A DNA stretch of 62,794 nucleotides, the filler included. It is 8 parts of 8 records of this genome, joined end to end, with 100 filler letters (N's around TTAATTAATTAA, not from the genome) between each part and the next. Parts side by side here need not be neighbours in the genome. Positions count along the whole stretch, not along the records: positions 24,298 to 31,309 come from SRR31147125_51693; 7 more parts are not named here. The stretch is one strand, 5' to 3'. A program made the translations under genes and the position numbers. Below the pieces are notes generated by a model that was not told where the DNA came from, did no database searches, and saw only the letters and a list, made by a program, of their open reading frames with translations. This document shows, piece by piece, positions 24,298 to 57,589 of the stretch; the first letter of the stretch is position 1, and each line of letters begins with the position of its first letter.

Positions 24298-24516
24298 AAA
24301 AAAATACTTATCCCATAAGTTTAATTTTAGTTTTTAGATCTGTTGCTGTTTTTCGAAAAAAAAGATAAAGAATTTGTTGCAGAAATAACATGTGTTATGT
24401 CTTGTAAACTAATTATTTACAAATGTTGTTCAACATTGTTACAAAACATAATAAAGCAGTATGTCATGAAAAATTGTCGCGAATAATTTTAATTTTGAAG
24501 CTAACGAAATCACGCA

Positions 24517-25866
24517 ATGACTGAGTTTGTTACATATATCCTGTACTTTTTCCTGTTAATTGCCATTCTTTTAATGGCTTTATTTGTGTTGTATTCTGTT
24601 GTCGAAAAAGAAAAAAGAGCGACTGGCAGAGCACTAATTTCGCTTGTTCTACTTTTAGTTGTTGCCTACGGAATATCCTTTCTGCCAATAGAATTTCATT
24701 TTGTTTTAGATGTAATACTCCTGCTTGTAACAATTGTGATATTACTAAAATTTGGAAACCGTAAGATTGACTTTGTTATTCCTGATACACGCTATGATGA
24801 ACGCGATGTAATGTTTTCGAGAAATACTTTGGTTGAAGGGACCGAAAAGTTTGAGAACTATTATAAAAACCGACCAGAGAACCGCGAGTCTGACGATAAT
24901 TTTAGGCAAGACCCCGGATTAATGGCTCCCGGAGCAACCTTTTACAACGAACTTTTTGCTTCTGCTGCAGACGCAAGCTTTGCTGCTGTTGATATGCTCC
25001 AGCCAATTGTTGAACAGTCTACGGCATCGGAAAAAACACAATTACCAGTACACGAAATTTCGAAATTCATAAAAAACTGGGCACTTAAACTTGGTGCTGA
25101 AGATGTTGGTTTTACATCGGTTAAACCGTATTCTATTTATTCGCATATAGGAAGGGGAAAGGCCTATGGGAAAGAGGTCGAATTACACCATAAATTTGCG
25201 ATAGCATTTACAGTAGAAATGAACCACGAAGCAATTCGTTATAATCCGCGAGGGCCGGTTGTAATGGAATCGGCACAACAATACCTAAATGCCGGTCAGA
25301 TTGCAGTGCAACTTGCACAATTTATACGGAACCTTGGTTTTGAGGCTCGTGCCCATATAGATGCTAATTATCGTTTAATTTGCCCAATTGTTGCACAGGA
25401 TGCAGGATTAGGAACTATCGGGCGCATGGGCTTACTAATGACACCAAAGTTTGGACCGAGAGTAAGACTTGGAGTGGTTACAACCGATCTTGAATTACCA
25501 ATTCAGGAAAAACCGGTTGATTATTCTGTAATTCATTTTTGCGAAGTGTGTAAAAAATGTGCCGAAAATTGTCCTTCGCAATCCATATCGCATCGTTCTG
25601 TAAAAAAAGAATCTTCACCCAAACGCTGGAGAATAAACCAGGAATCGTGCTTTGCTTATTGGTGTAAAATAGGTACCGATTGCGGACGGTGTATGGCTGT
25701 TTGTCCCTATTCTCATCCCAATAATTTTATGCATAATATTATTCGCCGGATGATAAAACGAAATCCAATAACACGATATTTTGCTCTAAAACTCGATGAC
25801 TTTTATTACGGGAGAAAACCCAGATCAGCAAATCCTAAAAATTGGCTATCAGCCGAAAAGATTTAG
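24517..25866 (+). CDS. Reductive dehalogenase-like cobalamin/2x[4Fe-4S] protein with N-terminal transmembrane helices
   Basis: LGAEDVG, AQDAGLGTIGRMGLLMTPKFGPRVRLGVVTTDL, FCEVCKKCAENCP and WCKIGTDCGRCMAVCPY; three hydrophobic N-terminal segments, no RRxFxK Tat motif. Confidence 0.8.
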   Translation: MTEFVTYILYFFLLIAILLMALFVLYSVVEKEKRATGRALISLVLLLVVAYGISFLPIEFHFVLDVILLLVTIVILLKFGNRKIDFVIPDTRYDERDVMFSRNTLVEGTEKFENYYKNRPENRESDDNFRQDPGLMAPGATFYNELFASAADASFAAVDMLQPIVEQSTASEKTQLPVHEISKFIKNWALKLGAEDVGFTSVKPYSIYSHIGRGKAYGKEVELHHKFAIAFTVEMNHEAIRYNPRGPVVMESAQQYLNAGQIAVQLAQFIRNLGFEARAHIDANYRLICPIVAQDAGLGTIGRMGLLMTPKFGPRVRLGVVTTDLELPIQEKPVDYSVIHFCEVCKKCAENCPSQSISHRSVKKESSPKRWRINQESCFAYWCKIGTDCGRCMAVCPYSHPNNFMHNIIRRMIKRNPITRYFALKLDDFYYGRKPRSANPKNWLSAEKI

Positions 25867-26084
25867 TTCAGAATAAGTTAATTAATAGGTAAATGTGCGT
25901 GTATTGGCGCATAATTAATTAAATATTAAGAATAAGTTCGTTTTTAAACTGTTGATAATCAATAATCAGTAATTTGTACCGTCTTTTATTTTACTTAAAA
26001 ATTGAGTATTAAAGGTGTTTTCCCTATTTTCGTAGGTAAATCATAAGCATTACCAGATAAGAATGGTAATTAAAATAAATTGAA

Positions 26085-28427
26085 ATGGAACCTAAAGATC
26101 TGAAAAACTCAGAAGAGTTAAAAAGTCCGGAAGCTACGGACCTTAATAAGGAGCAAAACATTACCGAAAAAGCACAAGCTGTTGAACCTCCAAAAGAGGA
26201 ACAAACGCAAGACGTTTCTGAAGTTGACGAAAAAACTGTGGCAACTCCCGAAAAACAAGAGGAGGTAAAAACAGATGATGTTGAAAACAAAGAAGAGCAA
26301 CCAGAACCCGAAGCAGTAAAAGCTGAAGAAGTGAAAGTTGCAGAAGTTACAGAAGAAACAAAAGCTGAGGCTGAAAAAGAAGTTGCGGCAGAAACTGAAA
26401 CCGAAAAAGCGGTAGAAGAGAAAGTCGCAGAAGCCACAGAAGAAACGAAAGCTGAGGTAAAAGAAGAAGTTGCGGCAGAAGCTGAAACGGAAAAAGCCGA
26501 AGACGAGAAAGTAGCAGAAGCCACAGCAGAAACAAAAGCTGAGGTGAAAGAAGAAGTTGCGGCAGAAACTGTTGAGGAAGTTAAAGAAGAGGTTAAAGTT
26601 GAGAAAGCAGCTTCGGAACCTGAGAAAAAAGAGGAAAAAGAACCTGAAAAAGTTAAGGCTGAAGTAGTTGCTGCCCCTAAAGTGAAAGAAAGAAAGGAAC
26701 CGGTTGACTACTCGAAACATACTCAGATTGAATTGGTTAACGCATTACGCGATTTAGTTGAAGAAAAAGAATACGAAGATATAAGAAACGATGTTGAGGC
26801 CATAAAAGCCGTGTTCTATAAAAATTTGAACGAAAACATTGAAACTGCTAAAAAGAAATTTATTGAAGAAGGCGGAGCCGAGCAAGATTTTAAGGAAGAA
26901 GAAGATCCTTATGAAAAAGATATTAAAGACCTGCTCAGAGATTACCGTCAGTTAAGAATAGAACTTAACAAAAGACTTGAAGGCGAAAAAGAAGAAAATC
27001 TTAAGAGAAAATACGAAGTTATAGAAAATATTAAAGGTCTTATAAACAATGAAGAATCTATTAATAAGACCTTTAACGAATTCAAAGACCTTCAAAGAGA
27101 GTGGCGTGAAATTGGTTTAGTTCCACAGGCGAAAATGAAAAATTTGTGGGATACCTACCATTTTCATGTAGAGAATTTCTACGATTATATTAAGATTAAC
27201 AGGGAATTACGCGACCTTGATCTGAAGAAAAATCTGGAAGCAAAAATTAAACTTTGCGAAAGGGCAGAGGAACTATTGGTTGAACCGTCTATTATAAAAG
27301 CGTTTAATACTCTACAAAAATATCACGAACAATGGCGTGAAATTGGTCCTGTTCCACGCGAACAAAAAGACGATATTTGGGAACGCTTCAAGTCCGCTAC
27401 GTCGAAAATTAATAAAAAGCATCAGGAATTTTTTGAAAACAGAAAAGTTGAGCAAAAGAAAAATCTGGAAGCCAAAACTGCTCTGTGCGAAAAAGTAGAA
27501 GAAATAAATATCGAAGAAATTTCATCTCATAAAGATTGGGACGAAAAATCGAAAGAACTTGTTGATTTACAAAAAGTTTGGCGTACAATAGGATTTGCTC
27601 CACGTAAAGATAATAATCGTATTTACGAGCGATTCCGTAGTGCATGCGATAAATTTTTCGATGCGAAACGCGAATTTTATTCGAAGAATAAAGAATACCA
27701 GCAGAATAATCTTCAGCTTAAAATTGACCTTTGTGTACAAGCTGAAGCGTTAAAAGACAGTACCGACTGGAAAAAGACTACACAAGATTTTATTAATATC
27801 CAGAAGAAATGGAAAGAAGTTGGCCCTGTTCCACGCAAACATTCCGATAATATTTGGAAACGTTTCAGAACAGCATGCGATTATTTCTTTGATAAAAAGT
27901 CGGAACATTTCTCTGGTGTCGACTCTGAACAAGTTGACAACCTGAAATTGAAGGAAAAATTAATAGAAGAAATTAAGAGTTTCGATACCAATACAGATAT
28001 TGAGGAAAGCCTGAAATTACTGAAAGAATTTCAACGTCGCTGGACTGAAATTGGCCATGTGCCGTATAAAAAGAAAGATGAAATTCAAGTTCAATTCAGA
28101 GAAGAAATTAATAAGCTTTACGATGAATTGAACCTTGATGAAGAAAAGCGTAATATGCTTAAGTTCCGTACTAAAATGTCATCGTTCTCTGAATCATCGC
28201 GCGGACAAAACAAAATGCGCATGGAGCGCGATAAGTACATGAACAAGATGAAGCAGCTTGAAAGCGATTTAGTGTTACTTGACAACAATATTGGATTCTT
28301 TGCAAAATCGAAAAACGCTGAGTCGTTAATTGAAGATGTGAAAAAGAAAATGGAAGTAACAAAACAAAAAATCGAATTCCTGAAAGATAAGATTCGTGTT
28401 ATTGACGAGATGGACAAAGAATACTAA
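26085..28427 (+). CDS. DUF349 domain protein with acidic low-complexity N-terminus
   Basis: Repeated (Q/K)xW+xIGxVP...W.RF..ACD.FF units characteristic of DUF349. Confidence 0.9.
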   Translation: MEPKDLKNSEELKSPEATDLNKEQNITEKAQAVEPPKEEQTQDVSEVDEKTVATPEKQEEVKTDDVENKEEQPEPEAVKAEEVKVAEVTEETKAEAEKEVAAETETEKAVEEKVAEATEETKAEVKEEVAAEAETEKAEDEKVAEATAETKAEVKEEVAAETVEEVKEEVKVEKAASEPEKKEEKEPEKVKAEVVAAPKVKERKEPVDYSKHTQIELVNALRDLVEEKEYEDIRNDVEAIKAVFYKNLNENIETAKKKFIEEGGAEQDFKEEEDPYEKDIKDLLRDYRQLRIELNKRLEGEKEENLKRKYEVIENIKGLINNEESINKTFNEFKDLQREWREIGLVPQAKMKNLWDTYHFHVENFYDYIKINRELRDLDLKKNLEAKIKLCERAEELLVEPSIIKAFNTLQKYHEQWREIGPVPREQKDDIWERFKSATSKINKKHQEFFENRKVEQKKNLEAKTALCEKVEEINIEEISSHKDWDEKSKELVDLQKVWRTIGFAPRKDNNRIYERFRSACDKFFDAKREFYSKNKEYQQNNLQLKIDLCVQAEALKDSTDWKKTTQDFINIQKKWKEVGPVPRKHSDNIWKRFRTACDYFFDKKSEHFSGVDSEQVDNLKLKEKLIEEIKSFDTNTDIEESLKLLKEFQRRWTEIGHVPYKKKDEIQVQFREEINKLYDELNLDEEKRNMLKFRTKMSSFSESSRGQNKMRMERDKYMNKMKQLESDLVLLDNNIGFFAKSKNAESLIEDVKKKMEVTKQKIEFLKDKIRVIDEMDKEY
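26334..26570 (+). repeat. In-frame 87-bp (29-aa) tandem repeat, about 2.7 copies
   Basis: Units start at 26334, 26421 and 26508 (KVAEVTEETKAE.., KVAEATEETKAE.., KVAEATAETKAE..). Confidence 0.85.
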
Positions 28428-28448
28428 CATTGCATTATTTATCATAAT

Positions 28449-28479
28449 AAAAAAAGCCGGAAAATTTCCGGCTTTTTTT
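28449..28479 (+). terminator. Bidirectional Rho-independent terminator after the DUF349 gene
   Basis: AAAAAAA-GCCGGAA-AAT-TTCCGGC-TTTTTTT. Confidence 0.9.
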
Positions 28480-28935
28480 ATTCTATTTTCTCAAACTCTA
28501 ATTTTCTTTACGTTTGCTTAGAATCGCATGAAATATTTTTCATGGATAATTTGTCGAAATATTCGATTCTGAGAATTTATTGACTTAATGTATTTCTTGA
28601 GAATTTTCAGAATAATTATACCTGGGTTTTTATAAACGGACAAGACATTTCTTAGTTCTAAAAATTCTAGATTTGCTTAATTGGAAAGAATCATCATTGT
28701 ACCTATGAATTCTTAACTCTCTGACAATTGCATGAAAATAAATTTTTGTACAGTTATTCAGATTAGATGATTTAAAAGTTTGGAATTTATCCGAGTATAT
28801 TACAAAACCAACTAAAGAATGAACGCAGAGATAATATATATTTATTCAAAACATTTACTCTTATTCTGTATACACTTTTACATAAAATCTTTGCCGTTAT
28901 ATGACTTTGCAAGCCATATATCTGATTTTATGCAA

Positions 28936-28963
28936 ATGTCCTATAATTGATATTGTTGTTACG
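28936..28963 (+). other. dif-like XerC/D site with degenerate XerD arm (candidate provirus attachment junction)
   Basis: ATGTCCTATAA-TTGATA-TTGTTGTTACG. The left arm matches the B. subtilis dif XerC-side arm ACTTCCTAGAA at 8/11; the right arm only partly resembles TTATGTTAAAT. Confidence 0.55.
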
Positions 28964-29309
28964 TTATCGGAAAAGTTACACTACTTAATTAAGGTAAATA
29001 TTCCGAAGTTTGATACAAGGTACATTGAGCGAAGCCTGAACGAATTCTAAGGTATAAAAATATTTCGAACGCTCGCAAGCTATAATTTTATAGCTCATGG
29101 CATTTTCCAGCTTTCGGATTTCAGCCCGATAGCTTTTCAATTTAAACCCCTGTTCTTTTAATTCGTTGTAAGCTTTCATGTAACTGGTAAAAACCCCGTA
29201 ATAATTACCGTCAATTTTAACTGTAATCACTTTCCGTTGTTTCATTTTATCTTGATTTTACATTTGTCAAACTTTGCCGTGTTTTGTGACGCAATCGGAA
29301 AAGTTAAAC
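28956..29309 (+). repeat. Imperfect 26-bp direct repeat pair (28956-28981 and 29284-29309)
   Basis: TTGTTACGTTATCGGAAAAGTTACAC versus TTGTGACGCAATCGGAAAAGTTAAAC, 22/26 identical, with an exact 13-bp core ATCGGAAAAGTTA. Confidence 0.8.
28985..29245 (-). CDS. Small basic protein, possible DNA-binding regulator of the element
   Basis: 86 aa, Lys/Tyr-rich; GVFTSYMKAY resembles the F-x-S-x-x-x-A pattern of NUMOD1-like DNA-binding modules (inference). Confidence 0.5.
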   Translation of the reverse strand: MKQRKVITVKIDGNYYGVFTSYMKAYNELKEQGFKLKSYRAEIRKLENAMSYKIIACERSKYFYTLEFVQASLNVPCIKLRNIYLN

Positions 29310-29430
29310 ATACATTGAAAACAATTTTGATTCAAAAATAACTTTTTTTCGACTCGCTCCAAATCCGCATATATAAAGGACTTTGATATTTTTCTAAGTG
29401 TTTTCTCGTATTCTTTTTGTTTGTGTCTCA

Positions 29431-29462
29431 TTTGGCGTGTTTTACAAATGTACAGACCTTTG
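29431..29462 (+). promoter_or_regulatory. Near-consensus Bacteroidota promoter for the structural operon
   Basis: TTTG-N20-GACCTTTG (one mismatch to TAnnTTTG), 48 nt upstream of the 29511 ATG. Confidence 0.45.
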
Positions 29463-29510
29463 TACCCGAGAGTAAAACAAAATTTTATTTATACACAATC
29501 TAATTAAGTT

Positions 29511-30251
29511 ATGATTTCAAAACACACGCTTACAGGAGCGACCACGTACACAGACAAACGAGTTTTTCAAGCTTGTAACGCATTGTTAGTTAAATGTTCA
29601 GACACGAACATTCCGACTGATGCAAAAATTGAAGTGACGTTAAATGACGGTTCAGGAGGTCAAAAGCTAATTCCTAACCTAAAAATGCACGACATTGCAG
29701 AAATCACTATGCAACGTTTCCCAGACGGACGCTACAGATTAAACGAATTGGTAATCCCAGTTTGTGACCTTGGAAACCTTGATTTGGGAGAAGATGCACA
29801 TTTGGTTGTTTCAGTTTCGGGATTAGAAGCCGCAAAAACTTACGAGTTAATTGCATTTACTTCTGCTCAGGGGAAAGTTTCTAACACGCCGCTTGTTTAT
29901 TCAAATAACACGGTAGCCGTAGGTAATAACAAAACCAGCATTCGCCCAATGCCTAACGCATTAATCGCATTTCCGAACAGTACTAAACTGGTTGAACTTT
30001 CGAAAACCTACGCTTCGCAAGGCGGCGCACCAGCCGTTACCGAAAGAATGGACTTGTCTATGATGCAGGCCGAAACCCGTTCAGGTATGGGAGATATTGC
30101 ACACGATGTAATATCAGCAGAACCCGTGATTTACGATTCGTACATTAACTGGCACGTTCGCCCAATGGCAGGCTTCAATTTGATTGAGCTTGATTTGGAT
30201 GAAACTGGTTACAACTACATTTTAGTAGAAAACGTTGCAATAAGTCTGTAA
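29511..30251 (+). CDS. Candidate double jelly-roll major capsid protein
   Basis: 246 aa, no signal peptide or TM, alternating hydrophobic beta-strands in two halves. KIEVTLND..QKLIPNLKMHDIAEI and LVIPVCDLGNLDLGEDAHLVVSVSG recall the first barrel of small DJR capsid proteins (pattern recognition only). Confidence 0.5.
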   Translation: MISKHTLTGATTYTDKRVFQACNALLVKCSDTNIPTDAKIEVTLNDGSGGQKLIPNLKMHDIAEITMQRFPDGRYRLNELVIPVCDLGNLDLGEDAHLVVSVSGLEAAKTYELIAFTSAQGKVSNTPLVYSNNTVAVGNNKTSIRPMPNALIAFPNSTKLVELSKTYASQGGAPAVTERMDLSMMQAETRSGMGDIAHDVISAEPVIYDSYINWHVRPMAGFNLIELDLDETGYNYILVENVAISL

Positions 30252-30272
30252 AACCCTTTAAACCTTTAAGAT

Positions 30273-31202
30273 ATGTCAATATTCAGTAAAATAGGTAAAG
30301 GGATTTCAAACACGGTTAAGGCCGTTGGTAAAGGCATCGGCAACGCTGCGGAATGGACTTGGGACAACAAAGGAAAAGTTCTTGGAACTGTTGCTGGTGT
30401 AGCAGGTGCAACCGTTGGACTGGGTGCAGTTGCGCCCGGGCTTGCGTCTGGAATTATCGACAAATTGGGCAATTCAAAAGTTGGTTCTGTTGTTGGTAAA
30501 GTAATGCAGTCGGGAGTTGTAATTAACTCGAAGATTAAAGACACTTTGGGCAAAAACGGACTTCCGACCGATGCACGAACAACGCAGGAAATGAGCGACT
30601 ACATAAAGTCGGAGGTTGAGCGTAAAGGCTTAACCGCGATTGAATCCAAAACACTTGGAAGCAATCACTCCATTCTGCAAACCATCGGGCAAAAATTGCC
30701 AACTTACGTACAGGAAGCAGGCGAACTTTTTGGAATTAATACAACCAATCCCGAGTATTCGCAAGCAACCATACAGGCACAGGCAGCGGCCAGTGCTTCC
30801 AGCGGTTTAGGCATGGCAGGTCTTGCAATGTCTCAGGCTAACCAAATGATGGCTTTTACAGCTGCCAACAGCAAAAACCAAAGCTCTAACGAATCGGCAA
30901 TTGATAAGCTAATTGCTATGAAAATGCTCGATTCGAATACACAGCAGAACCAACCCGAAAAGGAATCATTCATTGAAAAAATGATGATGATGAAAGAGTT
31001 GAACAAGCAGGACACGCCAGCTATTCAGCCACAAACAACGGCACAAATGCAGGCTTTCCAACAGGTTCAAGCTGATTTAAACCAGACTAAACTTGAAATG
31101 GCGATGGATAAAAACAACCCAAACAAAGTACTTTACATTATTGGGGTTGGAATCGCAGTTTTAGGTACAATTTTCGCAATTATTTTTTCCAAAAAACGCT
31201 AA
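30273..31202 (+). CDS. Gly/Ala/Gln-rich protein with amphipathic N-terminus and C-terminal membrane anchor (candidate virion membrane / DNA-pilot protein)
   Basis: MSIFSKIGKGISNTVKAVGKGIG amphipathic start, Gly/Ala hydrophobic stretch, C-terminal KVLYIIGVGIAVLGTIFAIIFSKKR. Confidence 0.55.
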   Translation: MSIFSKIGKGISNTVKAVGKGIGNAAEWTWDNKGKVLGTVAGVAGATVGLGAVAPGLASGIIDKLGNSKVGSVVGKVMQSGVVINSKIKDTLGKNGLPTDARTTQEMSDYIKSEVERKGLTAIESKTLGSNHSILQTIGQKLPTYVQEAGELFGINTTNPEYSQATIQAQAAASASSGLGMAGLAMSQANQMMAFTAANSKNQSSNESAIDKLIAMKMLDSNTQQNQPEKESFIEKMMMMKELNKQDTPAIQPQTTAQMQAFQQVQADLNQTKLEMAMDKNNPNKVLYIIGVGIAVLGTIFAIIFSKKR

Positions 31203-31206
31203 TAAA

Positions 31207-31309
31207 ATGCAGTACAAATTTCAACAGATTATAGCCTTTGTAAAGGCAAACGCCCTAAAAGTTGCAGGGGGAGCAGTCGTTTTAATCGGCTTGGTAGTTG
31301 CAGCAAAAA
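31207..31309 (+). CDS. Membrane protein, 3' truncated (not in the ORF track)
   Basis: ATG 4 nt after the previous stop: MQYKFQQIIAFVKANALKVAGGAVVLIGLVVAAK, open to the contig edge. Confidence 0.6.
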
Positions 31310-41414: not shown

Positions 41415-43550
41415 CCCCGTGAGGTCCGATTGCCCTCCCGGGCGGTCTTCTACGAATCTTGTGGCTGCCCGAACAGGTGGATCCAACAGGATTTGAAGAG
41501 CGGGGATTCCGAGGTCTCCCTGGATCAGCTGCTGAAAATCCTTGAGAGCCGACACAGTCTCCTGGCTAGCGAGATTACTGATTCCGGCAATTTCCTGGGA
41601 ATTATCAATACCCGGGATCAGGCGGATGACATTATCACCAGTCTCATCCACAGTCTGGAAGCGAAATCGACCGCTGCCATTCAAGACGCTGTTCTTCGCA
41701 TCGTTGAGATGAATCGCCATCTGCACCTGGATCTTTTTCAGTGGCAGGCTCTTTTTTCGTTCTTCCGGCGGCATATTTATGATATCACCAATGCCCCCGA
41801 TGTCCTGCTCAGCATTGAAGATGTACTGAGGGGAGCTGTGGGCTTTATTCTCGATCTTCGTATCCGTAATGAGTCGATGCTTCAGATGGAGTCCATTCTT
41901 CGTGCTGAAGGACTTCAGAATGTCGACCATGCCCTGACGACGGCACTAGACTATCGGTCGATTGTCGAGGCACTCAGAGTACAGTTGCCTTTGCTCAATA
42001 TTCCATCTTTCTATCTTGTGGTATTTGAAATGCCCCCTGAGGCTAATACCTCCGGCGGTTTCGTGGACTATTCCCGGCTGCTGCTGGCCTACACTCCCAG
42101 GGGCCGGCAGAAGGTTCCACCGGATGGAATTCGCTTTCCAACAAAGCGTGTATTGCCCCGGGGACTCCCATCGGCGAAACGGGATGCGGATTATCTCTTC
42201 CGGTCTCTGTCCTTCGGTGACGAAAAAATCGGATATATGGTCTTTGAGCTGGGACCGACCGACGGGGCAACCTACGATGCGATTGCGCTCAGACTCTCAG
42301 CCGCACTTAAAAACTCGTCTCTGGCAGACAGGTTGAGAGAGAAGACCAGAGATCTGGTACGGGTCAATGAGGAACTCGCCGTCCAGCAGGATCTACTGGA
42401 TACGTTCATCGAAAGTGTGCCGGATCTCATTTATTTCACCGATATCGACGGACATATCACCAAAGCCAACTCGGCACTGCTTCGGTGGTTCGGATTCTCC
42501 ACCCAGTCCGAGGTTCTCGGTGAACGGGCAAGCTTCATTTTTCCGTTTGAAATGAGTGCTGGCATGAAGCGATCCGAACTTGACATCCTCTCCTCCGGAA
42601 GTTCATCTCTGAACGTGGAGGAGCAGGTACGAAACAATACAGGTGACCAGCGGTGGCTGTTGACCACAAAAATGCCGCTGTACTCTGGAAACGGTGTCAT
42701 CAAGGGACTCTTTTCCATATCCCGGGATGTTACCGATCTGAAAGAGACCAATGCCAACCTGGAAACAACAATACAGGAGCTGACCAACATGCAGCGGCAG
42801 CTGGTTGAAGCCGAGAAGATGGCTGCATTGGGAGAGCTGGTCGCCGGCGTTGCCCATGAGATCAACTCACCGCTGGGAATTGCCGTTACGGCGGCATCAG
42901 CCGTAGCTGATTATGTCGACGAAATGCGCCTTGAGTACTCCGACACCGAGAATCACAGAATGCAGGATTCTCGCTTCGATGATGTTCAGGACATGTCAAA
43001 GATTGTCTTGTCCAATCTTCGGAGAGCAGCGGATCTGGTTCGGAGTTTCAAAATGGTCGCAGTGGATCAACAGTATGAAGAGCCTCGGAATATCCTGCTG
43101 GGTGAGTATGTACGAAACATTATCGATAGCCTTGAGCCTCAGATTAAAAAAGGGCATCATCGTATCGAGATCGACTGTCCGGCCGATATCAGGATTTTTA
43201 CCTACCCGGGATTGATCGGTCAGATTCTGACAAATCTGGTGATGAACTCGGTCGTCCACGGTTTTGAGGGCAGGCGGGAAGGCGACATCCATATCAGGAT
43301 CCTTCAGTTCGACAACATGATTCATCTCGAATACAAGGACAACGGACGAGGAATGGATGATGTGACCCTCGCTAAGGTTTTCAATCCGTTTTTCACCACG
43401 AAAAGGGGGCAGGGCGGATCAGGTCTGGGCATGCATATCGTCTATAACCTACTGACCCAGAAACTCGGCGGCTCTATCAGCGTTCAAAGCGCTGTCGATG
43501 ACGGCACAGTCTTCGATATTCGTTTTCCTGATACCACTCTCCAGAGTTGA
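41415..43550 (+). CDS. PAS-domain sensor histidine kinase, 5' truncated
   Basis: ESCGC end of a LacI-type ligand-binding domain, PAS (VPDLIYFTD...SRDVTD), H-box VAHEINSPL, NSVVHGF, DNGRG, PFFTTK, GSGLG. Confidence 0.9.
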   Translation, partial: PREVRLPSRAVFYESCGCPNRWIQQDLKSGDSEVSLDQLLKILESRHSLLASEITDSGNFLGIINTRDQADDIITSLIHSLEAKSTAAIQDAVLRIVEMNRHLHLDLFQWQALFSFFRRHIYDITNAPDVLLSIEDVLRGAVGFILDLRIRNESMLQMESILRAEGLQNVDHALTTALDYRSIVEALRVQLPLLNIPSFYLVVFEMPPEANTSGGFVDYSRLLLAYTPRGRQKVPPDGIRFPTKRVLPRGLPSAKRDADYLFRSLSFGDEKIGYMVFELGPTDGATYDAIALRLSAALKNSSLADRLREKTRDLVRVNEELAVQQDLLDTFIESVPDLIYFTDIDGHITKANSALLRWFGFSTQSEVLGERASFIFPFEMSAGMKRSELDILSSGSSSLNVEEQVRNNTGDQRWLLTTKMPLYSGNGVIKGLFSISRDVTDLKETNANLETTIQELTNMQRQLVEAEKMAALGELVAGVAHEINSPLGIAVTAASAVADYVDEMRLEYSDTENHRMQDSRFDDVQDMSKIVLSNLRRAADLVRSFKMVAVDQQYEEPRNILLGEYVRNIIDSLEPQIKKGHHRIEIDCPADIRIFTYPGLIGQILTNLVMNSVVHGFEGRREGDIHIRILQFDNMIHLEYKDNGRGMDDVTLAKVFNPFFTTKRGQGGSGLGMHIVYNLLTQKLGGSISVQSAVDDGTVFDIRFPDTTLQS

Positions 43551-43590
43551 TCGGTCGACAACGGTAGAGACACTTCCCGCGGTCCTGCTG

Positions 43591-44541
43591 TTACCATCCC
43601 AGCCGATAGGGCGGCAGCCGGTCCCTTTTTGCTGTCCGGTAGAACTCACGGACTTTATCGATGAAAAAACGCTGACTGGAGGATAGCAGGTAGCTTTTGC
43701 GATAAGCCGCATACAGATTGCGATGCTGTCGGGGTTCGAGGTGAAGGATTCTCATCTTTGATAGAATGGCCTTTGTCGGCAGTGGTACCAGGCTGACACC
43801 GATTCCCTCTTCAATAGCGGCGATGTGGGCATTGGTGGATGATGTCTCCAGCAGGATGTTTTCAGGGAAGAAACCGGCTCTCTCCATAATGGCATCGGTG
43901 AGGTTCCGCAGCATCGAATCCTGATTGGTCATCAGCCAGTTATCACCGCTGAATATTTTCAGGTCGGAAAGACTGATGCTACCTCTTCCTGTATCATCGG
44001 TCAGATGGGCCATAGGGTGGTTGAGGGGATAGGCAAAGACGATTTCCTCCTTGTCCAGGAGTTCCAGACAGACCGACTGATGCTCCTCCTGCAGCGGCGT
44101 CAGCACTGCGATATCCACGGACCCGTCCAGAACGTGGTCCAGCAATGTGTTCAGGTATGCCTCTTTCAGCTCCACATGAACGTTCGGGTAGGCCTTGTAG
44201 AATACCGGAAATACATTGGCCAGCATGGCCAGTCCCCGCTTGGGTGAACAACCGAAAACGAAGTTGCCGCGATTGGCATGCTGGACGTCCTCGAGTTCCC
44301 TGTAGGCTTCGTCTTTTATCTGCAATATACGACGGGCCGCATCCACATAGATACGTCCGCCGGCTGTCAGCTGGAACGTGCGGCTGTTGATCTTCTCGAA
44401 TATCGGGATGCCCAGTTCGTTCTCGAGCTTTCTGATGGTCTGGCTGAGAGCGGAAGATGTCACGAACAGTTTCTCTGCTGCTCGTGCCAAGCCTTTCTCA
44501 TCAGCGATGGTAACGATGTATTTGAGTTGGGTCAGGTCCAT
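43591..44541 (-). CDS. LysR family transcriptional regulator
   Basis: N-terminal HTH AAEKLFVTSSALSQTIRKLENELG plus substrate-binding domain; divergent from tctCBA. Confidence 0.93.
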   Translation of the reverse strand: MDLTQLKYIVTIADEKGLARAAEKLFVTSSALSQTIRKLENELGIPIFEKINSRTFQLTAGGRIYVDAARRILQIKDEAYRELEDVQHANRGNFVFGCSPKRGLAMLANVFPVFYKAYPNVHVELKEAYLNTLLDHVLDGSVDIAVLTPLQEEHQSVCLELLDKEEIVFAYPLNHPMAHLTDDTGRGSISLSDLKIFSGDNWLMTNQDSMLRNLTDAIMERAGFFPENILLETSSTNAHIAAIEEGIGVSLVPLPTKAILSKMRILHLEPRQHRNLYAAYRKSYLLSSSQRFFIDKVREFYRTAKRDRLPPYRLGW

Positions 44542-44556
44542 ATCTACTTCTTTGAG

Positions 44557-44571
44557 TTAAGTGTAGCTTAA
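44557..44571. promoter_or_regulatory. Candidate LysR recognition box
   Basis: Dyad TTAAG-TGTAG-CTTAA containing T-N11-A, just upstream of the LysR start. Confidence 0.5.
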
Positions 44572-44690
44572 CGAAAAGGTAAAACAATTAACTTTACTTC
44601 TTGTTATCGCGGATTGATAATCTGCGTTAGCAATGGGTTCTGTTTTCGGATCCAAACGCCAATGAATCATACTATCTGGAGGTAGTTTTT

Positions 44691-45692
44691 ATGAAGATGA
44701 TGAAGGGATTTCTTCTTATGCTTGTGTGCCTGACCGTTGCCGCCGGCGCGGTTTTCGCCAATGGCTCCGCTGAGGGAAGTGATACTCCTGAAGCAGCAGA
44801 AGCTGCTGTATGGCCTGCGGGTCCCATCAACCTGATTGTCACTTCCCGGGCCGGTGGATTTGCTGACTTCCACACCCGGGTCCTCGGTGACTACATACAG
44901 GAGACCACCGGTACTCCCGTTGCTGTTCTCAACGCCACAGAAGGTGGCGGTTCCGTCGGATCGGATACGGTCGCTAAAGCGGATCCGGATGGACTCACCC
45001 TCCTCTATATGCATACGTCTTTCCCGATTTCCTGCTACACCGGCCGGACGGACCTAGATCCTGTGTCTGATTTCACTTCGATCCGATCGGTAGTGAACGC
45101 CGGTAACAATGCCCTGGTGGTTCGCGCCGATGCTCCCTGGGACAATCTGGAAGAACTGGTTGAGGACGCAAGGAAACGGCCGGATGAAATCGTCTGGGGT
45201 GCCATGGCCGGAGCCACATCCCATTTCATGCTTGCCATGCTTGAGCAGGAAGCTGGAGTCGACTTCAAGATGGTTGATGCCGGATCCGAATCCGAGAAAA
45301 TCACTATGCTTCTCGGTGGCCACCTGGATGTCTGCAACATCAGCATGAGGAATCTGGATCAGTACGTGAAAGCCGGACAGATGAAGAATATGGGCGTCAT
45401 GGGATCCGAGCGGGACTTCGCATTCCCCGAATACAGTACCACTGGTGAGCAGGGCTACGATGTGGTCTGGAACGGCGAGTTCATGCTCTGGGGACCAGCC
45501 GGCATGCCTGATGAAATGGTTGCCCAGATTAATGACGTACTCGAAGGCTATGGAACCACCGACCAGAAGTCCGCTGATGCCATCGCTGGTCACGGCGGCT
45601 GGGTTGTGGAACGGACAGCCGAAGAGTCCATCGCCTTCATGTACGACACCTATGAGGAATTCGAGGCCCTGGCGAAAGAACTCGGCTTCTAG
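44691..45692 (+). CDS. tctC: Tripartite tricarboxylate transporter substrate-binding protein
   Basis: WPAGPINLIV..AGG..D..TR, ADPDGLTLL, LLGGHLD; spirochaete-style signal (VFANGSAEG). Confidence 0.88.
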   Translation: MKMMKGFLLMLVCLTVAAGAVFANGSAEGSDTPEAAEAAVWPAGPINLIVTSRAGGFADFHTRVLGDYIQETTGTPVAVLNATEGGGSVGSDTVAKADPDGLTLLYMHTSFPISCYTGRTDLDPVSDFTSIRSVVNAGNNALVVRADAPWDNLEELVEDARKRPDEIVWGAMAGATSHFMLAMLEQEAGVDFKMVDAGSESEKITMLLGGHLDVCNISMRNLDQYVKAGQMKNMGVMGSERDFAFPEYSTTGEQGYDVVWNGEFMLWGPAGMPDEMVAQINDVLEGYGTTDQKSADAIAGHGGWVVERTAEESIAFMYDTYEEFEALAKELGF

Positions 45693-45811
45693 TTCCGACA
45701 GGGTCGGCCGATTACGCTACAGAAGTCTGTCCGGCCCTTCGAATAAAGGATGTTCCGCCCACCAGTCCGGAGGGCGGGACTCACTCTGAATCTGTTACAA
45801 GAGGTGAGGTT

Positions 45812-46276
45812 TTGAACAAAAACAGAATCATCGGCATCATCCTGGCGGTCGTCGCTGTTTTGTTTCTCATCATGACCAGTCTATTGCCTGACTCCCAGTA
45901 CTCGACCGCCGTCGGCCCCGATGTGTTTCCGTACATCGCCGCCGTGGGCCTTCTGCTCTGCGCCATCGGTATCTTCTTCAAGAAGGTGCCCGAAAGCGAA
46001 CAGAAACCGTTCCTGGACAAGGCCGGTTGGTTCCGGGTACTCAAGCTCGTCGTTTTACTTGCGATGTATCCGGTCATGTTCATTTTTCTGGGGTTCATCG
46101 TTGCATCCCTTATTGCGCTCTTTCTGATGATCACCATGTTCGATCTGGAGAAAGAAGAGCCGGTCTGGAAGAAGCTGCTCGTCACCGGTATCACAACCGC
46201 GGCGCTGTACGCTCTGTTCGTCTTTGTCATCAACATTCGATTGCCGGCAGGCAAGCTTTTCGAACTGCTGAGGTAA
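45812..46276 (+). CDS. tctB: Tripartite tricarboxylate transporter small subunit
   Basis: Four TM helices, VGPDVFP and FVINIRLPAG motifs. Confidence 0.88.
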   Translation: MNKNRIIGIILAVVAVLFLIMTSLLPDSQYSTAVGPDVFPYIAAVGLLLCAIGIFFKKVPESEQKPFLDKAGWFRVLKLVVLLAMYPVMFIFLGFIVASLIALFLMITMFDLEKEEPVWKKLLVTGITTAALYALFVFVINIRLPAGKLFELLR

Positions 46277-46283
46277 TGGGAAT

Positions 46284-47565
46284 ATGGAATACTTGTCTTA
46301 TGTAGCCGGATCACTGTTCTCGCCGATGACGTTTCTCCTCATCCTCGGGGGAACGATCCTCGGTATCATCTTCGGCGCCATTCCCGGCCTGGCCGGTGCG
46401 GTGGCCATCGTTCTTCTGCTCCCGTTCACCTATGCGATGGATGCCGAGCCGGCCATCGCGTTGCTGATTGCCATTTATGTCGGCGGTATCTCCGGTGGAT
46501 TCATTTCATCCACACTCATAGGGATTCCAGGCGCGCCGGCTGCCGTACCCACGACTTTCGAGGCCTATCCGCTGGCAAAGAAAGGTTTTGCGGTGAAGGC
46601 CCTCGGTATCTGCATCGTCACGTCCTTTCTCGCCACGTTCCTGTCCGGATTGGTGGCCATGTTCCTCAGTCCCGTTATCGCCTCGGTGGCAGTGAAACTG
46701 GGCCCCTGGGAGCTTTTCGGCCTGTGTTTCCTGGCAATATCCCTCATCGCATCCCTGTCGGAAGGCAATATCCTGAAAGGTCTATCCTCAGCGGCACTGG
46801 GCTTCCTGATCGGCAGTATCGGCGCCGCTCCCATCGACGGGACGCCCCGGTTCATTTTCGGAACGATGAGGCTCTACGGCGGAGTTCCCCTGGCGGCGAC
46901 TATGATCGGATTCTTTGCCGTCAGACAGGTTCTGGTGGATATCGGCAAGGGCGATACAAAGCTTCCGGAAGTGAAGGAAACGAAAATCCGTGGCCTCGGT
47001 TTTACCCTCAAGAGATTCACGAGCAATACGTGGACAATGATCCGCTCCTTCTTCATCGGCCTGGGAATCGGATTCCTACCCGGAATGGGAGCCGGCATTT
47101 CCGCGGTTGTTTCCTATGCGAAGGCCAAGGGCGCCTCGAAACATCCGGAGGAATACGGAAACGGGACCATTGAAGGACTTTTCGCTACTGAAACGGCCAA
47201 CAATGCCACGGTCGGCGGCGCGGTCATCCCCATGATGTCCCTGGGTATTCCAGGTGATACAACCACGGCGCTGCTGCTGGGCGCCCTGACGATACAAGGC
47301 ATGACCCCTGGGCCTTTATTGATGGTGAGCAGTCCCCACTTCGCCTACGTGATGTTCGGTGCACTGCTCCTGGCGGCTGTGCTCACCCTGCTGGTTCAGT
47401 TCTTTGGTATGAGGCTGTTCCCGAAACTGCTGTCCATCAAGTTCCACTACCTGCTGCCGGTGATCATGCTCATCTGTTTTGTCGGCGCATACTCGGAAAC
47501 CTACAGCGTTTTCACCATCGTTCTGCTGCTTATCTGCGGGCTCATCGCCTTTCTGCTGGCCTGGG
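46284..47565 (+). CDS. tctA: Tripartite tricarboxylate transporter large permease, 3' truncated
   Basis: GIIFGAIPGL, IGIPGAPAA, ETANNA, LGIPGD, PGPLL. Confidence 0.92.
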
Positions 47566-47665
47566 NNNNNNNNNNNNNNNNNNNNNNNNNNNNNNNNNNN
47601 NNNNNNNNNTTAATTAATTAANNNNNNNNNNNNNNNNNNNNNNNNNNNNNNNNNNNNNNNNNNNN
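47566..47665. other. Artificial contig linker
   Basis: 44 N + TTAATTAATTAA + 44 N. Confidence 0.98.
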
Positions 47666-47666
47666 T

Positions 47667-50264
47667 GAGGGGATCGGCACGCCGCAGCATCTGCATCCGC
47701 TGCAGCAGGCATGGATCACATACGGCGGCGTTCAGTGCGGCTTCTGTACGCCGGGCTTCATCGTCTCATCCTATGCGCTTTTAAAGCAAAACCCCTCGCC
47801 GACCCGCGAGGAGGTCCGCGCGTGGTTTAAAAAGCACCGCAACATCTGCCGCTGCACGGGGTACAAGCCCTTGGTCGATTCGGTTATGGCCGCGGCGAAA
47901 GTTATGCGCGGCGAAGCGACAATGGCGGACATCACCTTCGATGCCGACAGCGAAAAGGATATTTACGGCTCGTACCGCCCGCGTCCGTCGGCGCTCGGCA
48001 AGGTCACAGGCCTTACCGATTACGGCGATGACCTCAAGCTGAAAATGCCCGAGGGTACGGCGTATCTGGCCGTTGTCATTTCAGAAGTGGCGCACGCCAA
48101 TATTATCAGCATCGACACGGAAGAAGCCGAAGCGATGCCCGGTGTTATCAAGGTCTTAACGGCCAAGGACGTCAAGGGCACCAACAATCTCGACGGCCCC
48201 CCGCTGGTTCCGCGTGTCAAGGGCCGCGGCGTCACCATCTTCCCCGTCATCGCCGGCAAAAAGATCAATAAACGCGGCGACATCGTCGCGGTCGTCGCGG
48301 CGGACTCCGAGGAGCATGCCCGCGCCGCGGCTAAAAAGGTCAAGCAGAACCTTGAGGTCCTGCCTGCCTATATGACGTTCCCGGAAGCGGCTATGCCCGA
48401 TGCCATCCCGCTCCACGAGGACCTTCCCAACTTTTATATGGAGCAGCCCGTTTACAAGGGCCAGGATACGTCCGAGATTTTCGAAACAGCCGAATTTGTG
48501 GCCGAGGGCAGCTTCCACTCCCAGCACGAGCCGCATCTCCCACTGGAGCCCGACGTTGTTCAGGGCTATATCGGCGCGGACGGCATGCTCACCATTCAGT
48601 GTAAATCGCAGGCCATCGGCGAGGCCCGTGAAGCGCTTGCAGCAGCCTGCGGCATCCCCATGGAAGAGCTGCGCGTTATAATGAATCCCGTCGGCGGCTC
48701 CTTCGGATATTCCGTCAGCACGAATACGTTCGCGGTCGTGGCCACCGCCGTGCAGAATCTTGAGATGCCCTGCACGATGACCCTCACCTATGAAGAGTTC
48801 AACCACGTAACCGGCAAGCGCTCGGCCTCCTTTGCAAACGGCCGGATCGCCTGCGACAAGGACGGCATGATAACAGCCGCCGAATATGACATCGGCCTGG
48901 ATCACGGCGCGTACGGCACGATGGGCAACAAAATTTTCAACAATCTCGTTTCCGTCGGCTTCCACGGTTATAATGTTCCGAATTTCAAGGCACTGGGCCG
49001 CGGCGCATCTACAAACCAGGCATTCTGCGCCGCTTACCGCGGCTTCGGCGCACCGCAGGTGTATACGACAACCGAAGCGCTTATCGATTTAATAGCACAG
49101 AAAGCCGGCATTGACCCCTGGGAGTTCCGCTATAAAAACGCGGCCCGGCCCGGCGATCTGACGATCAATAACCGTCCGTACCACGAATATGTTTATCCGG
49201 ATCTTTTAGAGAAAGCCAAGCCGTTTTACGATCAGTACAAGGCAGAGGCCGAAGCGGCCAAAAAAGACGGCCGTTACGTCGGCGTCGGCCTGAGCATGGG
49301 TGGCTTCCTTGTCACCATCGGCATGTTCGACCAGGCCGAGATCGCGCTGGAGCTCAACCCCGACGGCACGTTCACCCATTACAACACGTGGGAAGACGTT
49401 GGCCAGGGCGGCGACATCGGCGCGCTGACACACGCCGTTAAGGCGCTTGAGCCGCTCGGCATTAAGGCCGAACAGGTGAGGCTCGTCATGAACGACAGTA
49501 AAACGTGCCCCGATACGGGCGTGGCAGCGGCCAGTCGCAGCCACTATATGGCCGGCAACGCCACGATCGATGCGGCCAACAAGCTGATGGACGCCATGCG
49601 CAAGGACGACGGCACCTACCGCACGTACGAGGAAATGACGGCGGAGGGTATCCCGACGAAATATATCGGCCATTACGACCAGTTTAGCATCGGGCTGCCG
49701 CCCGGACTGGATCCCAATTCCGGCGAGGGCGAGAAGAACCCGGCCTATATGTACTGCGTCAACGTCGCGCTCGTCGAGGTTGACGTAGCAACCGGCAAGG
49801 CCCAGGTTCTCCGGTACGCCTGCGTGTCCGACGTCGGCGTTATCGGCAACCGCCTTTCTGTCGAAGGCCAGGCCTACGGCGGGCTGTCTCACAGCATCGG
49901 CTTTGCGCTCAGCGAGGATTACCAGGCAGAGAAAAAGAACGGAAACATGGTTGGCTGCGGCATCCCGACAATCGACATGATTCCGGACGATATCAGCCTC
50001 GTCTTTGTTGAAACGCCGCGTCCGTTTGGGCCGCACGGCTCCTGCGGCTGCTCGGAGTGCTACCAGTCCTCCAATCATATGGCTGTTATAAACGCCATCG
50101 ACAGCGCCTGCGGCGCGCGCGTCTACGACCTGCCCGCAACCCCCGACAAGATCAAGGCTGCCTATGAGGCCCGCCAGCGCGGCGAGGACCTTACGCCGCC
50201 GAAATATTACCTTGGCAACGATTTTGAGGAGGAGCTTGAGCTCATTAAAGCAAACCCCATGTAA
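47667..50264 (+). CDS. mop: Molybdopterin-dependent aldehyde oxidoreductase (Desulfovibrio Mop type, xanthine oxidase family), 5' truncated
   Basis: The frame extends upstream of the track start to LHPLQQAW...QCGFCTPG...RNICRCTGY (2Fe-2S); VGGSFG, YRGFGAPQ, WEDVGQG, SRS, EGQAYGG. Confidence 0.92.
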   Translation, partial: EGIGTPQHLHPLQQAWITYGGVQCGFCTPGFIVSSYALLKQNPSPTREEVRAWFKKHRNICRCTGYKPLVDSVMAAAKVMRGEATMADITFDADSEKDIYGSYRPRPSALGKVTGLTDYGDDLKLKMPEGTAYLAVVISEVAHANIISIDTEEAEAMPGVIKVLTAKDVKGTNNLDGPPLVPRVKGRGVTIFPVIAGKKINKRGDIVAVVAADSEEHARAAAKKVKQNLEVLPAYMTFPEAAMPDAIPLHEDLPNFYMEQPVYKGQDTSEIFETAEFVAEGSFHSQHEPHLPLEPDVVQGYIGADGMLTIQCKSQAIGEAREALAAACGIPMEELRVIMNPVGGSFGYSVSTNTFAVVATAVQNLEMPCTMTLTYEEFNHVTGKRSASFANGRIACDKDGMITAAEYDIGLDHGAYGTMGNKIFNNLVSVGFHGYNVPNFKALGRGASTNQAFCAAYRGFGAPQVYTTTEALIDLIAQKAGIDPWEFRYKNAARPGDLTINNRPYHEYVYPDLLEKAKPFYDQYKAEAEAAKKDGRYVGVGLSMGGFLVTIGMFDQAEIALELNPDGTFTHYNTWEDVGQGGDIGALTHAVKALEPLGIKAEQVRLVMNDSKTCPDTGVAAASRSHYMAGNATIDAANKLMDAMRKDDGTYRTYEEMTAEGIPTKYIGHYDQFSIGLPPGLDPNSGEGEKNPAYMYCVNVALVEVDVATGKAQVLRYACVSDVGVIGNRLSVEGQAYGGLSHSIGFALSEDYQAEKKNGNMVGCGIPTIDMIPDDISLVFVETPRPFGPHGSCGCSECYQSSNHMAVINAIDSACGARVYDLPATPDKIKAAYEARQRGEDLTPPKYYLGNDFEEELELIKANPM

Positions 50265-50393
50265 AAACTGCTCCACTTAAGCTGCGCCTATTCTAAATTT
50301 AAGTTTCCCCGGCTCATTGGCCGGCGGAATAAAACAACCATCAAGGGGCGCGTCAACATGGCGCGCCCTGTCGGCCTAATAGGACTGATTAAA

Positions 50394-52631: not shown

Positions 52632-52635
52632 CGCC

Positions 52636-52830
52636 TTGGAAGAGAGCAAAACCTGGAAATGCGCCAAATGCGACAAAGACCTGGTTGTGAAGAAAACGCG
52701 GTTTTCGTATCTCGGGCACACGTTCTCCCACGAGGTGCTCCGATGCCCGAAATGCGGCAACGTCTTCATCCCGCAGGAGCTGGCCGAGGGCCGGATGGCC
52801 GAGGTTGAAACGCAGATGGAGGACAAGTAG
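52636..52830 (+). CDS. Small CxxC...CxxC redox/metal-binding protein (DVU_1557-like)
   Basis: WKCAKC...RCPKCG...ELAEGRMAEVE...EDK; GGGAGG RBS and TTG start. Confidence 0.8.
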   Translation: MEESKTWKCAKCDKDLVVKKTRFSYLGHTFSHEVLRCPKCGNVFIPQELAEGRMAEVETQMEDK

Positions 52831-52844
52831 GAAGGCCCAATACA

Positions 52845-54203: not shown

Positions 54204-54862
54204 ATATTTACGAATCCGAGCTGTTCTCCCGCCTGAAGGATTATTCAATGCACCCCGGCGGCCTTCGCCTGACGGACCGCGCGGCCCGTCTAGCCGGGCT
54301 TGAAAGCGGCATGGCGGCCGCCGACATCGGCTGCGGCGCAGGCGCGACGGCCGCGTTCTTGGCCCGTCAATACGGACTGAAGATGGTCGGCGTGGAAATT
54401 TCTGAGCAGCTCATCGGCATCGGGCTAAAAAAAGGCCCTGGCCTGCACTTTATCCGCTGGGACTGCAACACGCTGCCCTTTGAGCCCGACAGTCTCGACG
54501 CTGTTTTGTTTGAATGCTCACTGTCTGTCATCGGTTACGATGGACATGCGCTTGAGGAATGCGCCAAGGCGCTCAAGCGGGACGGAACCCTTATTATCTC
54601 CGACCTGTTCTCCAAACGTAAAACAGGCCGGCCCGGCGAACTTCCCACCGTGGAAGCGCTGGAACAACATCTGGTAAAAACCGGCTTCACTATATTCACC
54701 GGCGAGGATCACACGCCCGCGCTTGTCACGTATGCCGCCGAGCTGGCCGGGCAAGCTGACAGTCCGTCTGACGGGGGATGCTTTCTCGGCGAAAGGTTTA
54801 CCGGGGAATTTAAGCTGTCCGACTGCTGCTACCGGCTGATCATCGCTAAAAAAACGATCTGA
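54200..54862 (+). CDS. Class I SAM-dependent methyltransferase (DVU_1556-like)
   Basis: HPGGLRLT, DIGCGAG, LPF...LDAVLFECSLS; the GTG start overlaps the radical SAM stop. Confidence 0.85.
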   Translation: MNIYESELFSRLKDYSMHPGGLRLTDRAARLAGLESGMAAADIGCGAGATAAFLARQYGLKMVGVEISEQLIGIGLKKGPGLHFIRWDCNTLPFEPDSLDAVLFECSLSVIGYDGHALEECAKALKRDGTLIISDLFSKRKTGRPGELPTVEALEQHLVKTGFTIFTGEDHTPALVTYAAELAGQADSPSDGGCFLGERFTGEFKLSDCCYRLIIAKKTI

Positions 54863-54870
54863 AAACGCTT

Positions 54871-56169: not shown

Positions 56170-56226
56170 CAACGTTTCAGCCCCTATATAAACAGGAGCG
56201 AAACGTAAATATAGAACCTTCTAAGA

Positions 56227-56394: not shown

Positions 56395-56402
56395 AGGTTA
56401 AT

Positions 56403-57443: not shown

Positions 57444-57463
57444 ACCACAATCAAAATGAGTAT

Positions 57464-57588: not shown

Positions 57589-57589
57589 G

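Follow-up and report, generated by a model that had tools for sequence, protein, structure and literature searches.

What occupies the 3' end of a Bacteroidota contig in which a conserved host gene gives way, across a site resembling dif, to a compact run of genes without an assigned family? The contig (7012 bp) fills positions 24298-31309 of the window, by which we mean the whole 62,794-nt (62.8-kb) stretch of DNA analysed; the window is eight contigs split by seven N44-TTAATTAATTAA-N44 spacers, and is not one molecule. A preliminary description had taken the segment 28936-31309 for the left end of a divergent double jelly-roll (DJR) virus that exploits host Xer recombination. We consider it highly probable that this segment holds the left junction and roughly the first 30% of an ~8-kb provirus of the phiCjT23/FLiP type, integrated at dif, where chromosome dimers are resolved, in a member of the Prolixibacteraceae. 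The virus is of the phiCjT23/FLiP kind, that is, tailless, membrane-containing and icosahedral, with a compact DJR capsid.

The capsid protein

The identification begins with the 246-aa protein (p246) encoded at 29511-30251 on the plus strand, which has no hydrophobic segment and no significant Pfam or PHROGs family. Relatives are few: a word search of 5.8 billion proteins found one, and a search of 1.84 billion representative proteins gave four at E <= 0.001. A capsid profile of five sequences matches one PDB family, 'Major capsid protein P5' of the phiCjT23 virion (7ZZZ, 7zzz_J; E 2.2e-13). The AlphaFold model of the protein (pLDDT 80.3, pTM 0.80) is almost all beta strand, and its best Foldseek match is again phiCjT23 (E 1.7e-10, TM 0.69/0.71), followed by the capsid proteins of STIV, FLiP, PRD1/PR772 and PM2; its matches in BFVD are viral DJR capsid proteins. 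Another member of the capsid family, P0005, matches gp4 of the Cellulophaga single-stranded DNA (ssDNA) phages (E ~2e-9), gp4 being a structural protein verified by mass spectrometry. By profile match and modelled fold, we identify the 246-aa protein as a major capsid protein of the phiCjT23 DJR type.

The kinship is a distant one. Capsid identity to phiCjT23 is just 16-17%, and the window protein has no direct BLAST match to the Cellulophaga phages among the GenBank phages. A trimer prediction with three copies of the protein scored 0.01 against a mark of 0.32; the predictor did not use the alignment, and the score speaks neither for nor against a trimeric capsid protein. One might still ask whether this is a cellular DJR protein of the DUF2961/GH172 type, lying in a non-viral gene cluster. 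We find that hardly credible, given the sequence-level homology to the phiCjT23 capsid and the relatives described below, which carry a rolling-circle Rep and sit between dif repeats.

The left junction lies within dif

The DUF349 protein encoded to the left of the element was used to retrieve 67 related loci, nearly all of them from Draconibacterium, Maribellus and other Prolixibacteraceae. In relatives free of the element, the host dif is a 28-nt sequence, TTGTCCTATAA TTGATA TTATGATAAAT. Six of the loci (L001, L053, L020, L044, L004 and L058) have it intact at an empty site; it is identical in the first two and differs at 2-5 positions in the other four. Its right arm is identical to the XerD arm of Escherichia coli dif at 10/11 positions, and its left arm to that of Bacillus subtilis dif at 7/11 (reference sequences from Kono et al. 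2011, PMC3025954). The genes flanking the site are convergent: DUF349 to one side, and to the other a gene for a 391-aa protein followed by gyrA.

A switch of GC skew from plus to minus marks the replication terminus, where dif is expected to lie, as is well established (see also PMC3091885). Sampling of the complete chromosome G001 gave positive GC skew from ~3.6 Mb through the end and start of the record to dif at 58.5 kb, and negative skew from there to ~3.3 Mb. The switch at dif is clean in G001 and G043, where three of three sampling intervals of ~20 kb fit on each side. The site is the dif of the Prolixibacteraceae, at the replication terminus by GC skew, cleanly so in two of four relatives.

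Only one place in the window, on either strand, comes within seven mismatches of the relatives' 28-nt dif, and it is the start of the segment in question: 28936-28963 (plus strand), ATGTCCTATAA TTGATA TTGTTGTTACG. This site, which we call attL, consists of a XerC-type host arm (28936-28946), a central region (28947-28952) and a foreign, degenerate right arm (28953-28963). Compared with the relatives' dif, the left arm agrees at 10/11 positions, the central region at 6/6 and the right arm at 5/11, so that the first 17 nt are identical at 16/17 positions and the last 11 at 5/11. Homology to the relatives spans the intergenic region and in at least eight loci appears to stop at 28936-28937, because the window has suffered a host deletion of 55-59 nt there; homology then restarts for 18 nt (TGTCCTATAATTGATATT, 28937-28954) and ends for good after 28954. 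At the left junction, host dif and a foreign arm make up a hybrid site.

What lies to the right of this junction is foreign to the locus. In tblastn searches, the five open reading frames (ORFs) right of 28936 were present in 0/67 related loci, as against 11/67 for the upstream 449-aa protein and 67/67 for DUF349. Because none of the 67 loci carries these genes, while several have an empty site, the genes are by this comparison an insertion and not syntenic core genes. The visible left part of the prophage, for which the 67 loci offer no homology, extends from 28955 to 31309 (~2.36 kb). It is ended by the contig end, which is real, as had been supposed; the spacer starts at 31310. The preliminary description had let its proposal hang on two comparisons, the fold of the 246-aa protein and the state of the locus in relatives. 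The model has the DJR fold, and the relatives have empty dif sites without the genes.

A possible objection is that the junction is an assembly chimera, produced by misjoining a free viral contig to a host contig; the bin is fragmented, and its contigs range in GC from 0.36 to 0.58. Yet the junction falls exactly within the dif core, as it does in three independent complete genomes (below). Moreover, a second assembly, that of Logan for sequencing run X1, bridges the junction with no other letters, and its contig extends 1573 nt past 31309; X1 is possibly the source of this DNA. We regard a chimera as very improbable indeed.

Complete relatives at the same locus

A capsid profile search of 301 Prolixibacteraceae genomes gave three matches (G043, G207 and G247); among the genomes sampled more widely, the capsid gene occurred in 2/401 at the level of the order and in 4/401 at that of the phylum. 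All three relatives sit at the same locus, adjoining the genes for the 391-aa protein and gyrA. Each is flanked by dif-like repeats, spaced 8047 bp apart in G207, 7832 bp in G247 and 7865 bp in G043. Within these relatives, attL and attR agree at 10-11/11 positions of the left arm, 6/6 of the central region and 4-6/11 of the right arm, and in all three it is the gyrA-facing site (attR) that has the better XerD-type arm. The insertion lies inside dif, with the XerC-side arm and central region duplicated and a degenerate foreign right arm at the left junction; in the relatives, dif is regenerated at the right junction, and no recombinase was detected within their elements. These results bear out the earlier proposal of an element end at dif: a hybrid junction in the window, complete relatives flanked by dif, and no tyrosine recombinase match inside any of the three.

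We ran Pfam on the ORFs of two of the three relatives, G043 and G207. The rolling-circle Rep family PF23343 was found in both (28.5 and 46 bits, respectively; cut-off 27.8), together with a weak glucosaminidase-like match in G043 that fell below the cut-off. The two largest non-Rep ORFs scanned in these elements, of 267 aa and 418 aa, matched no Pfam family. Matches to a XerD model were absent from inside the prophages of all three relatives, despite many tyrosine recombinase matches elsewhere in the genomes. XerD itself exceeded the curated cut-off of 329.6 bits in 4/4 host genomes (350-356 bits), accompanied by a paralog at 248-264 bits.

These data address the alternative that a recombinase gene in the unseen part of the window element directs integration, dif being only a neighbor of the sequence targeted. 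Two thirds of the element, on its right, do lie beyond the contig, and Vibrio DJR prophages are described in PMC12715192 as occurring in both an integrase type and a dif type. However, the junction falls within the 28-nt dif, of which the XerC-side arm and central region are duplicated, and the complete relatives contain no XerD-model match. Rep was the sole Pfam family on the ORFs of more than 250 aa scanned in G043 and G207 (a 295-aa ORF fell outside the scan). We therefore judge a recombinase of the element's own to be very improbable.

The G043 element matches the window element in architecture. From attL onward, G043 has a minus-strand 87-aa gene, the capsid gene, a membrane protein of 295 aa (41% identity to the window protein p309, described below, in the N-terminal part of the latter), further small genes, and then Rep on the minus strand adjoining attR. 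By analogy, the missing two thirds of the window element should resemble those of G043.

Two element lineages use the same dif: G207 with G247 (L095, L097), and the window with G043 (L096). In the first, the capsid gene is oriented toward DUF349 and is immediately preceded by Rep, as it is in phiCjT23; in the second, the capsid gene is oriented away from DUF349, and Rep (seen in G043) is on the other strand at the far end. The differing layout implies that the two genome types differ in both the position and the orientation of attP. In G043, attL has a 478-aa ORF (L096 7530-9324) on its left in place of DUF349, which implies that the terminus region has been rearranged in that genome. A candidate second dif-like site in G043 (L096:9715) was set aside, since its 4 mismatches in 17 are about what chance would give by a rough estimate.

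Proposed integration mechanism

We propose that the virus would replicate as a circle by means of a rolling-circle Rep encoded at the far end, as in G043. The attP of this circle would copy the host's XerC-side arm and 6-bp central region, with a degenerate XerD-side arm, and host XerC/XerD would recombine this mimic with dif, as they do for integrative mobile elements exploiting Xer (IMEX). The left junction would retain the degenerate arm, and the right junction would regenerate a working dif, so that under this proposal the host could still resolve chromosome dimers. The poor XerD arm may also protect the prophage from FtsK-driven excision.

A bolder version can be put together from these elements, although we think it improbable. 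It holds that the window and G043 elements form a separate, family-level lineage of Marinilabiliales ssDNA DJR viruses; that their attP, with a XerC arm and central region identical to the host's and a degenerate XerD arm, works by a TLC-like route independent of FtsK that would need a phage-encoded Xer activator; and that p86 of the window (described below) and its 87-aa counterpart p87 in G043 would be that activator or a lysogeny switch.

Weighing the provirus interpretation

Several points weigh against reading the segment as a phiCjT23/FLiP-type provirus integrated by Xer. First, the visible part comprises no more than attL and ~2.36 kb; neither this contig nor any other contig of the window contains Rep, a lysis gene or attR. 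Second, neither a circular junction nor empty-site joints were found in X1, the single run with this DNA (and possibly its source), for which contigs were searched. Third, IMG/VR, the JGI metagenomes and the GenBank phages yielded neither closer relatives nor a free viral genome of this lineage. Fourth, GC skew is noisy in G207 and G247, with two of three intervals on each side fitting a terminus at dif. Fifth, p309 aligns with its supposed counterparts in phiCjT23 (gp06) and phi18:4 (gp5) at an hhalign probability of 3.4%, which leaves profile homology unsupported. Finally, two parts of the interpretation draw on relatives and on the literature: the DNA is probably single-stranded in the virion, as the kinship of capsid and Rep suggests, and we infer from the same kinds of comparison that integration depends on Xer.

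Part of this pattern would also be expected of a decayed, non-functional prophage remnant that kept its left end at dif but lost the rest, or had it rearranged, and can produce no virus. The short visible length, the host deletion beside dif (which shows that local rearrangement has occurred) and the lack of a free genome in the viral collections would all suit a remnant. Yet the capsid, p309 and p86 ORFs are intact, the Logan contig continues well past the contig end, and the three relatives at the locus are full-length (7.8-8.0 kb). We think a remnant unlikely, and continue to favor the provirus of ~8 kb.

Comparison with known viruses and Xer-dependent elements

The kind of element described here is already known, from Kejzar et al. 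(2022), Yutin et al. (2018) and Krupovic and Forterre (2011); ours is a very divergent member in a new host family.

The closest comparison is with phiCjT23, described by Kejzar et al. (PMC9719478) as a temperate, lipid-containing ssDNA phage of 7642 nt. The same authors describe 57 phiCjT23-like Flavobacterium prophages of 6021-8407 bp with 28-nt dif flanks, for which they propose XerC/D integration. These viruses and our elements share putative small membrane proteins after the capsid gene and, as known here from the relatives, a length of ~6-8.4 kb, a rolling-circle Rep and 28-nt dif flanks. They differ in host order, that of our element being Marinilabiliales (family Prolixibacteraceae). 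They differ also in layout: phiCjT23 has its Rep immediately before the capsid gene and on the same strand, whereas in the lineage of the window and G043 the capsid gene is preceded by a small divergent gene for a basic protein, and Rep is at the far end on the opposite strand (as seen in G043).

The Cellulophaga ssDNA phages phi18:4, phi12:2, phi12a:1, phi48:1 and Omtje (Obscuriviridae, PMC11946311) are linked to our elements by the match of P0005 to gp4. The genes of these phages run Rep, capsid, small structural or membrane proteins and a glucosaminidase-type lysin, an order similar to that of G043. They are, however, isolated lytic phages of Flavobacteriia, phi18:4 being characterised as such in its description. 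The phi18:4 genome itself carries a dif-like 28-mer (L071 5166-5193, minus strand), TTGTACTATAA TTTATA GTATGTAAATT, which is 6 positions off the Prolixibacteraceae dif and hints that the Cellulophaga phage group may integrate by Xer.

The element proposed here resembles FLiP (Finnlakeviridae) and the FLiP group, which have ssDNA, a DJR capsid, an M13-like rolling-circle Rep and no packaging ATPase; Yutin et al. (PMC5894146) found some members of the group in Bacteroidetes genomes, likely as prophages. Krupovic and Forterre (PMC3091885) described microvirus proviruses flanked by dif in Bacteroidales and proposed XerC/D integration for them. These proviruses, BMV1-7 (Alpavirinae), are, like our element as proposed, small integrase-less ssDNA proviruses of Bacteroidota with dif-like flanks, but they have a single jelly-roll microvirus capsid.

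The closest attP architecture is that of the TLC phage and the gonococcal islands, with a XerC arm and central region like those of dif and a degenerate XerD-side arm; there, the degenerate arm hampers XerD binding and FtsK-driven excision (PMC6744903). The Vibrio IMEX elements (CTX, VGJ, TLC) and the dif-type Vibrio DJR prophages (PMC6744903, PMC12715192) lack an integrase of their own, integrate at dif and regenerate dif at one junction, as we propose for our element. Small regulatory genes occupy the terminal position next to attP in these elements, a role that p86 may play here. They differ from our element in belonging to another phylum and another virus group, being filamentous or double-stranded DNA DJR phages.

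The preliminary description had suggested that a DJR virus exploiting Xer may be undescribed in this host lineage. That holds in part. The combination is known in Bacteroidota (PMC9719478, and for microviruses PMC3091885), but a Prolixibacteraceae host for such an element was not found in print by our searches, which drew on the main text of Kejzar et al. Literature on prophages or ssDNA in Draconibacterium, Maribellus and Prolixibacteraceae, judged by title and abstract, contained no such element.

Very few ssDNA DJR phages have been isolated (FLiP, phiCjT23 and the related Cellulophaga phages), and the group bears on ideas about early virus evolution. With the present element, whose gene order is rearranged, the group now reaches a marine sediment family belonging to another order. 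The Prolixibacteraceae dif, now defined, is a simple marker for finding integrase-less elements in these genomes, and an attP with a degenerate XerD-side arm makes Xer hijacking outside Proteobacteria directly testable.

Other genes and repeats of the element

The ORFs listed in the preliminary description are all in place: a divergent basic ORF of 86 aa, the 246-aa capsid ORF, an anchored 309-aa ORF rich in Gly, Ala and Gln, and the start of a further membrane ORF. That description had also seen no housekeeping, transposase or tailed-phage motif among them, and indeed Pfam and PHROGs gave nothing significant for any element protein; Pfam found no recombinase domain in the visible ORFs.

The small basic protein p86 (28985-29245, minus strand; 86 aa, pI 9.67) is encoded by the terminal gene adjoining attL. 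It belongs to no known family, and structural comparison of its model (pLDDT 75) gave no convincing match, but its counterpart is recognizable in G043, where an 87-aa protein, 36% identical and also on the minus strand, adjoins attL. We regard p86 as most likely part of a lysogeny or regulation module and as a candidate lysogeny regulator. Such a role is plausible because the terminal genes next to attP in Vibrio dif-type DJR prophages encode a repressor and a XafT-like regulator (PMC12715192). No match to DUF3653 (XafT) was found at E up to 1 in the proteins of the visible part (p86, p54, p246, p309 and the 34-aa p34), and the visible proteins include no RstR homolog. Upstream of p86, the ORF list contains a possible small basic ORF of 54 aa, absent from the preliminary description (p54, 29267-29431, minus strand), a candidate gene with no homolog in any locus searched.

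Directly 3' of the capsid gene is p309 (30273-31202, plus strand; 309 aa), a membrane protein with a G+A+Q content of 28%. Its hydrophobic stretches are a Gly/Ala-rich segment at residues 36-58 and a C-terminal membrane anchor at 283-308, which is followed by basic residues. The N-terminal part is 37-41% identical to the post-capsid proteins of G043, G207 and G247. Features common to those three proteins, phiCjT23 gp06 and the phi18:4 virion protein gp5 are a basic motif in the N-terminal part, a Gly/Ala segment, and a basic-tailed anchor at the C terminus; p309 agrees with gp06 and gp5 in position and architecture. An Atlas search gave a best score of 0.86, to unnamed clusters. From position and architecture only, p309 is a probable minor virion or membrane protein. 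The next ORF, p34, starts at 31207 on the plus strand and is open-ended at 31309, with 34 aa visible, of which residues 15-34 are hydrophobic. We infer that p309 and this ORF encode membrane proteins of the inner lipid layer of the virion.

A 26-nt direct repeat brackets the p86 gene. Copy 1 (28956-28981, plus strand) overlaps the foreign arm of attL, and copy 2 (29284-29309, plus strand), 85% identical to it, follows at a spacing of 328 nt. The two copies might act as paired operators or as iterons of an origin, or might provide a second attachment half-site; G043 has no equivalent.

The host flank and the window

The contig carries, in order, a 449-aa gene, the DUF349 gene, a terminator hairpin, non-coding DNA and then the dif-like site with the element ORFs. 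The DUF349 gene (26085-28427, plus strand; Pfam PF03993, E 9e-91) is, judging from the related loci, the conserved left neighbor of the dif locus in Prolixibacteraceae. Its product is at most 83% identical to those of the 67 loci, the top match being that of Maribellus sp. YY47. From these matches we assign the host to the Prolixibacteraceae, Maribellus/Draconibacterium group; NCBI taxonomy places the family in Marinilabiliales, class Bacteroidia. The terminator 3' of DUF349 (28446-28482) is an 18-nt perfect inverted repeat forming 17 pairs, followed by a T run. The non-coding stretch after it had been put at about 450 bp of AT-rich DNA leading to a dif-like site; it measures 453 bp (28483-28935; 26.5% GC), and the site starts exactly at 28936. 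This stretch is host DNA, conserved in relatives as far as dif. GC content is 0.402 for 28964-31309, compared with 0.359 in the host part of the contig.

Immediately left of dif is a conserved 63-nt inverted repeat, ACTTTTACATAAAATC ... GATTTTATGCAAA (28874-28936), that is host-side and not viral. We found it in the window and in 10/67 related loci (e.g. L001:10619-10681), at a length of 61-63 nt, and as a single copy in each of two of five whole genomes scanned. In relatives it is located 55-59 nt left of the host dif. Pairwise alignments show that the window is without this 55-59 nt, which L053, L001, L044 and L020 have; the deleted stretch includes a small covarying hairpin, and the deletion reaches as far as the outermost base of the left arm of dif (28936/28937). 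A MAFFT multiple alignment misplaced the deletion, so we relied on the pairwise alignments to locate it.

We considered the inverted repeat as an attachment site or RNA gene and rejected both: the break beside it is the host deletion, an Rfam search gave no match, and covariation is weak, with one pair changed on both sides, which also occurred in 33/500 shuffles. Nor is it required for integration, since the prophage-bearing G207 (L095 6149-6174) is without the conserved inverted repeat beside dif. Its arms (ACTTTTACATAAAATC / GATTTTATGCAAA) resemble XerD-type dif arms in inverted orientation. The repeat could serve to bind a protein near dif, or could be left over from an earlier element that exploited Xer.

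The window as a whole varies in composition. The five upstream contigs have 36-40% GC, two further contigs (41415-57488) have 53.5% and 57.6%, and the last (57589-62794) has 44.9%; the two high-GC contigs indicate that the bin probably mixes organisms.

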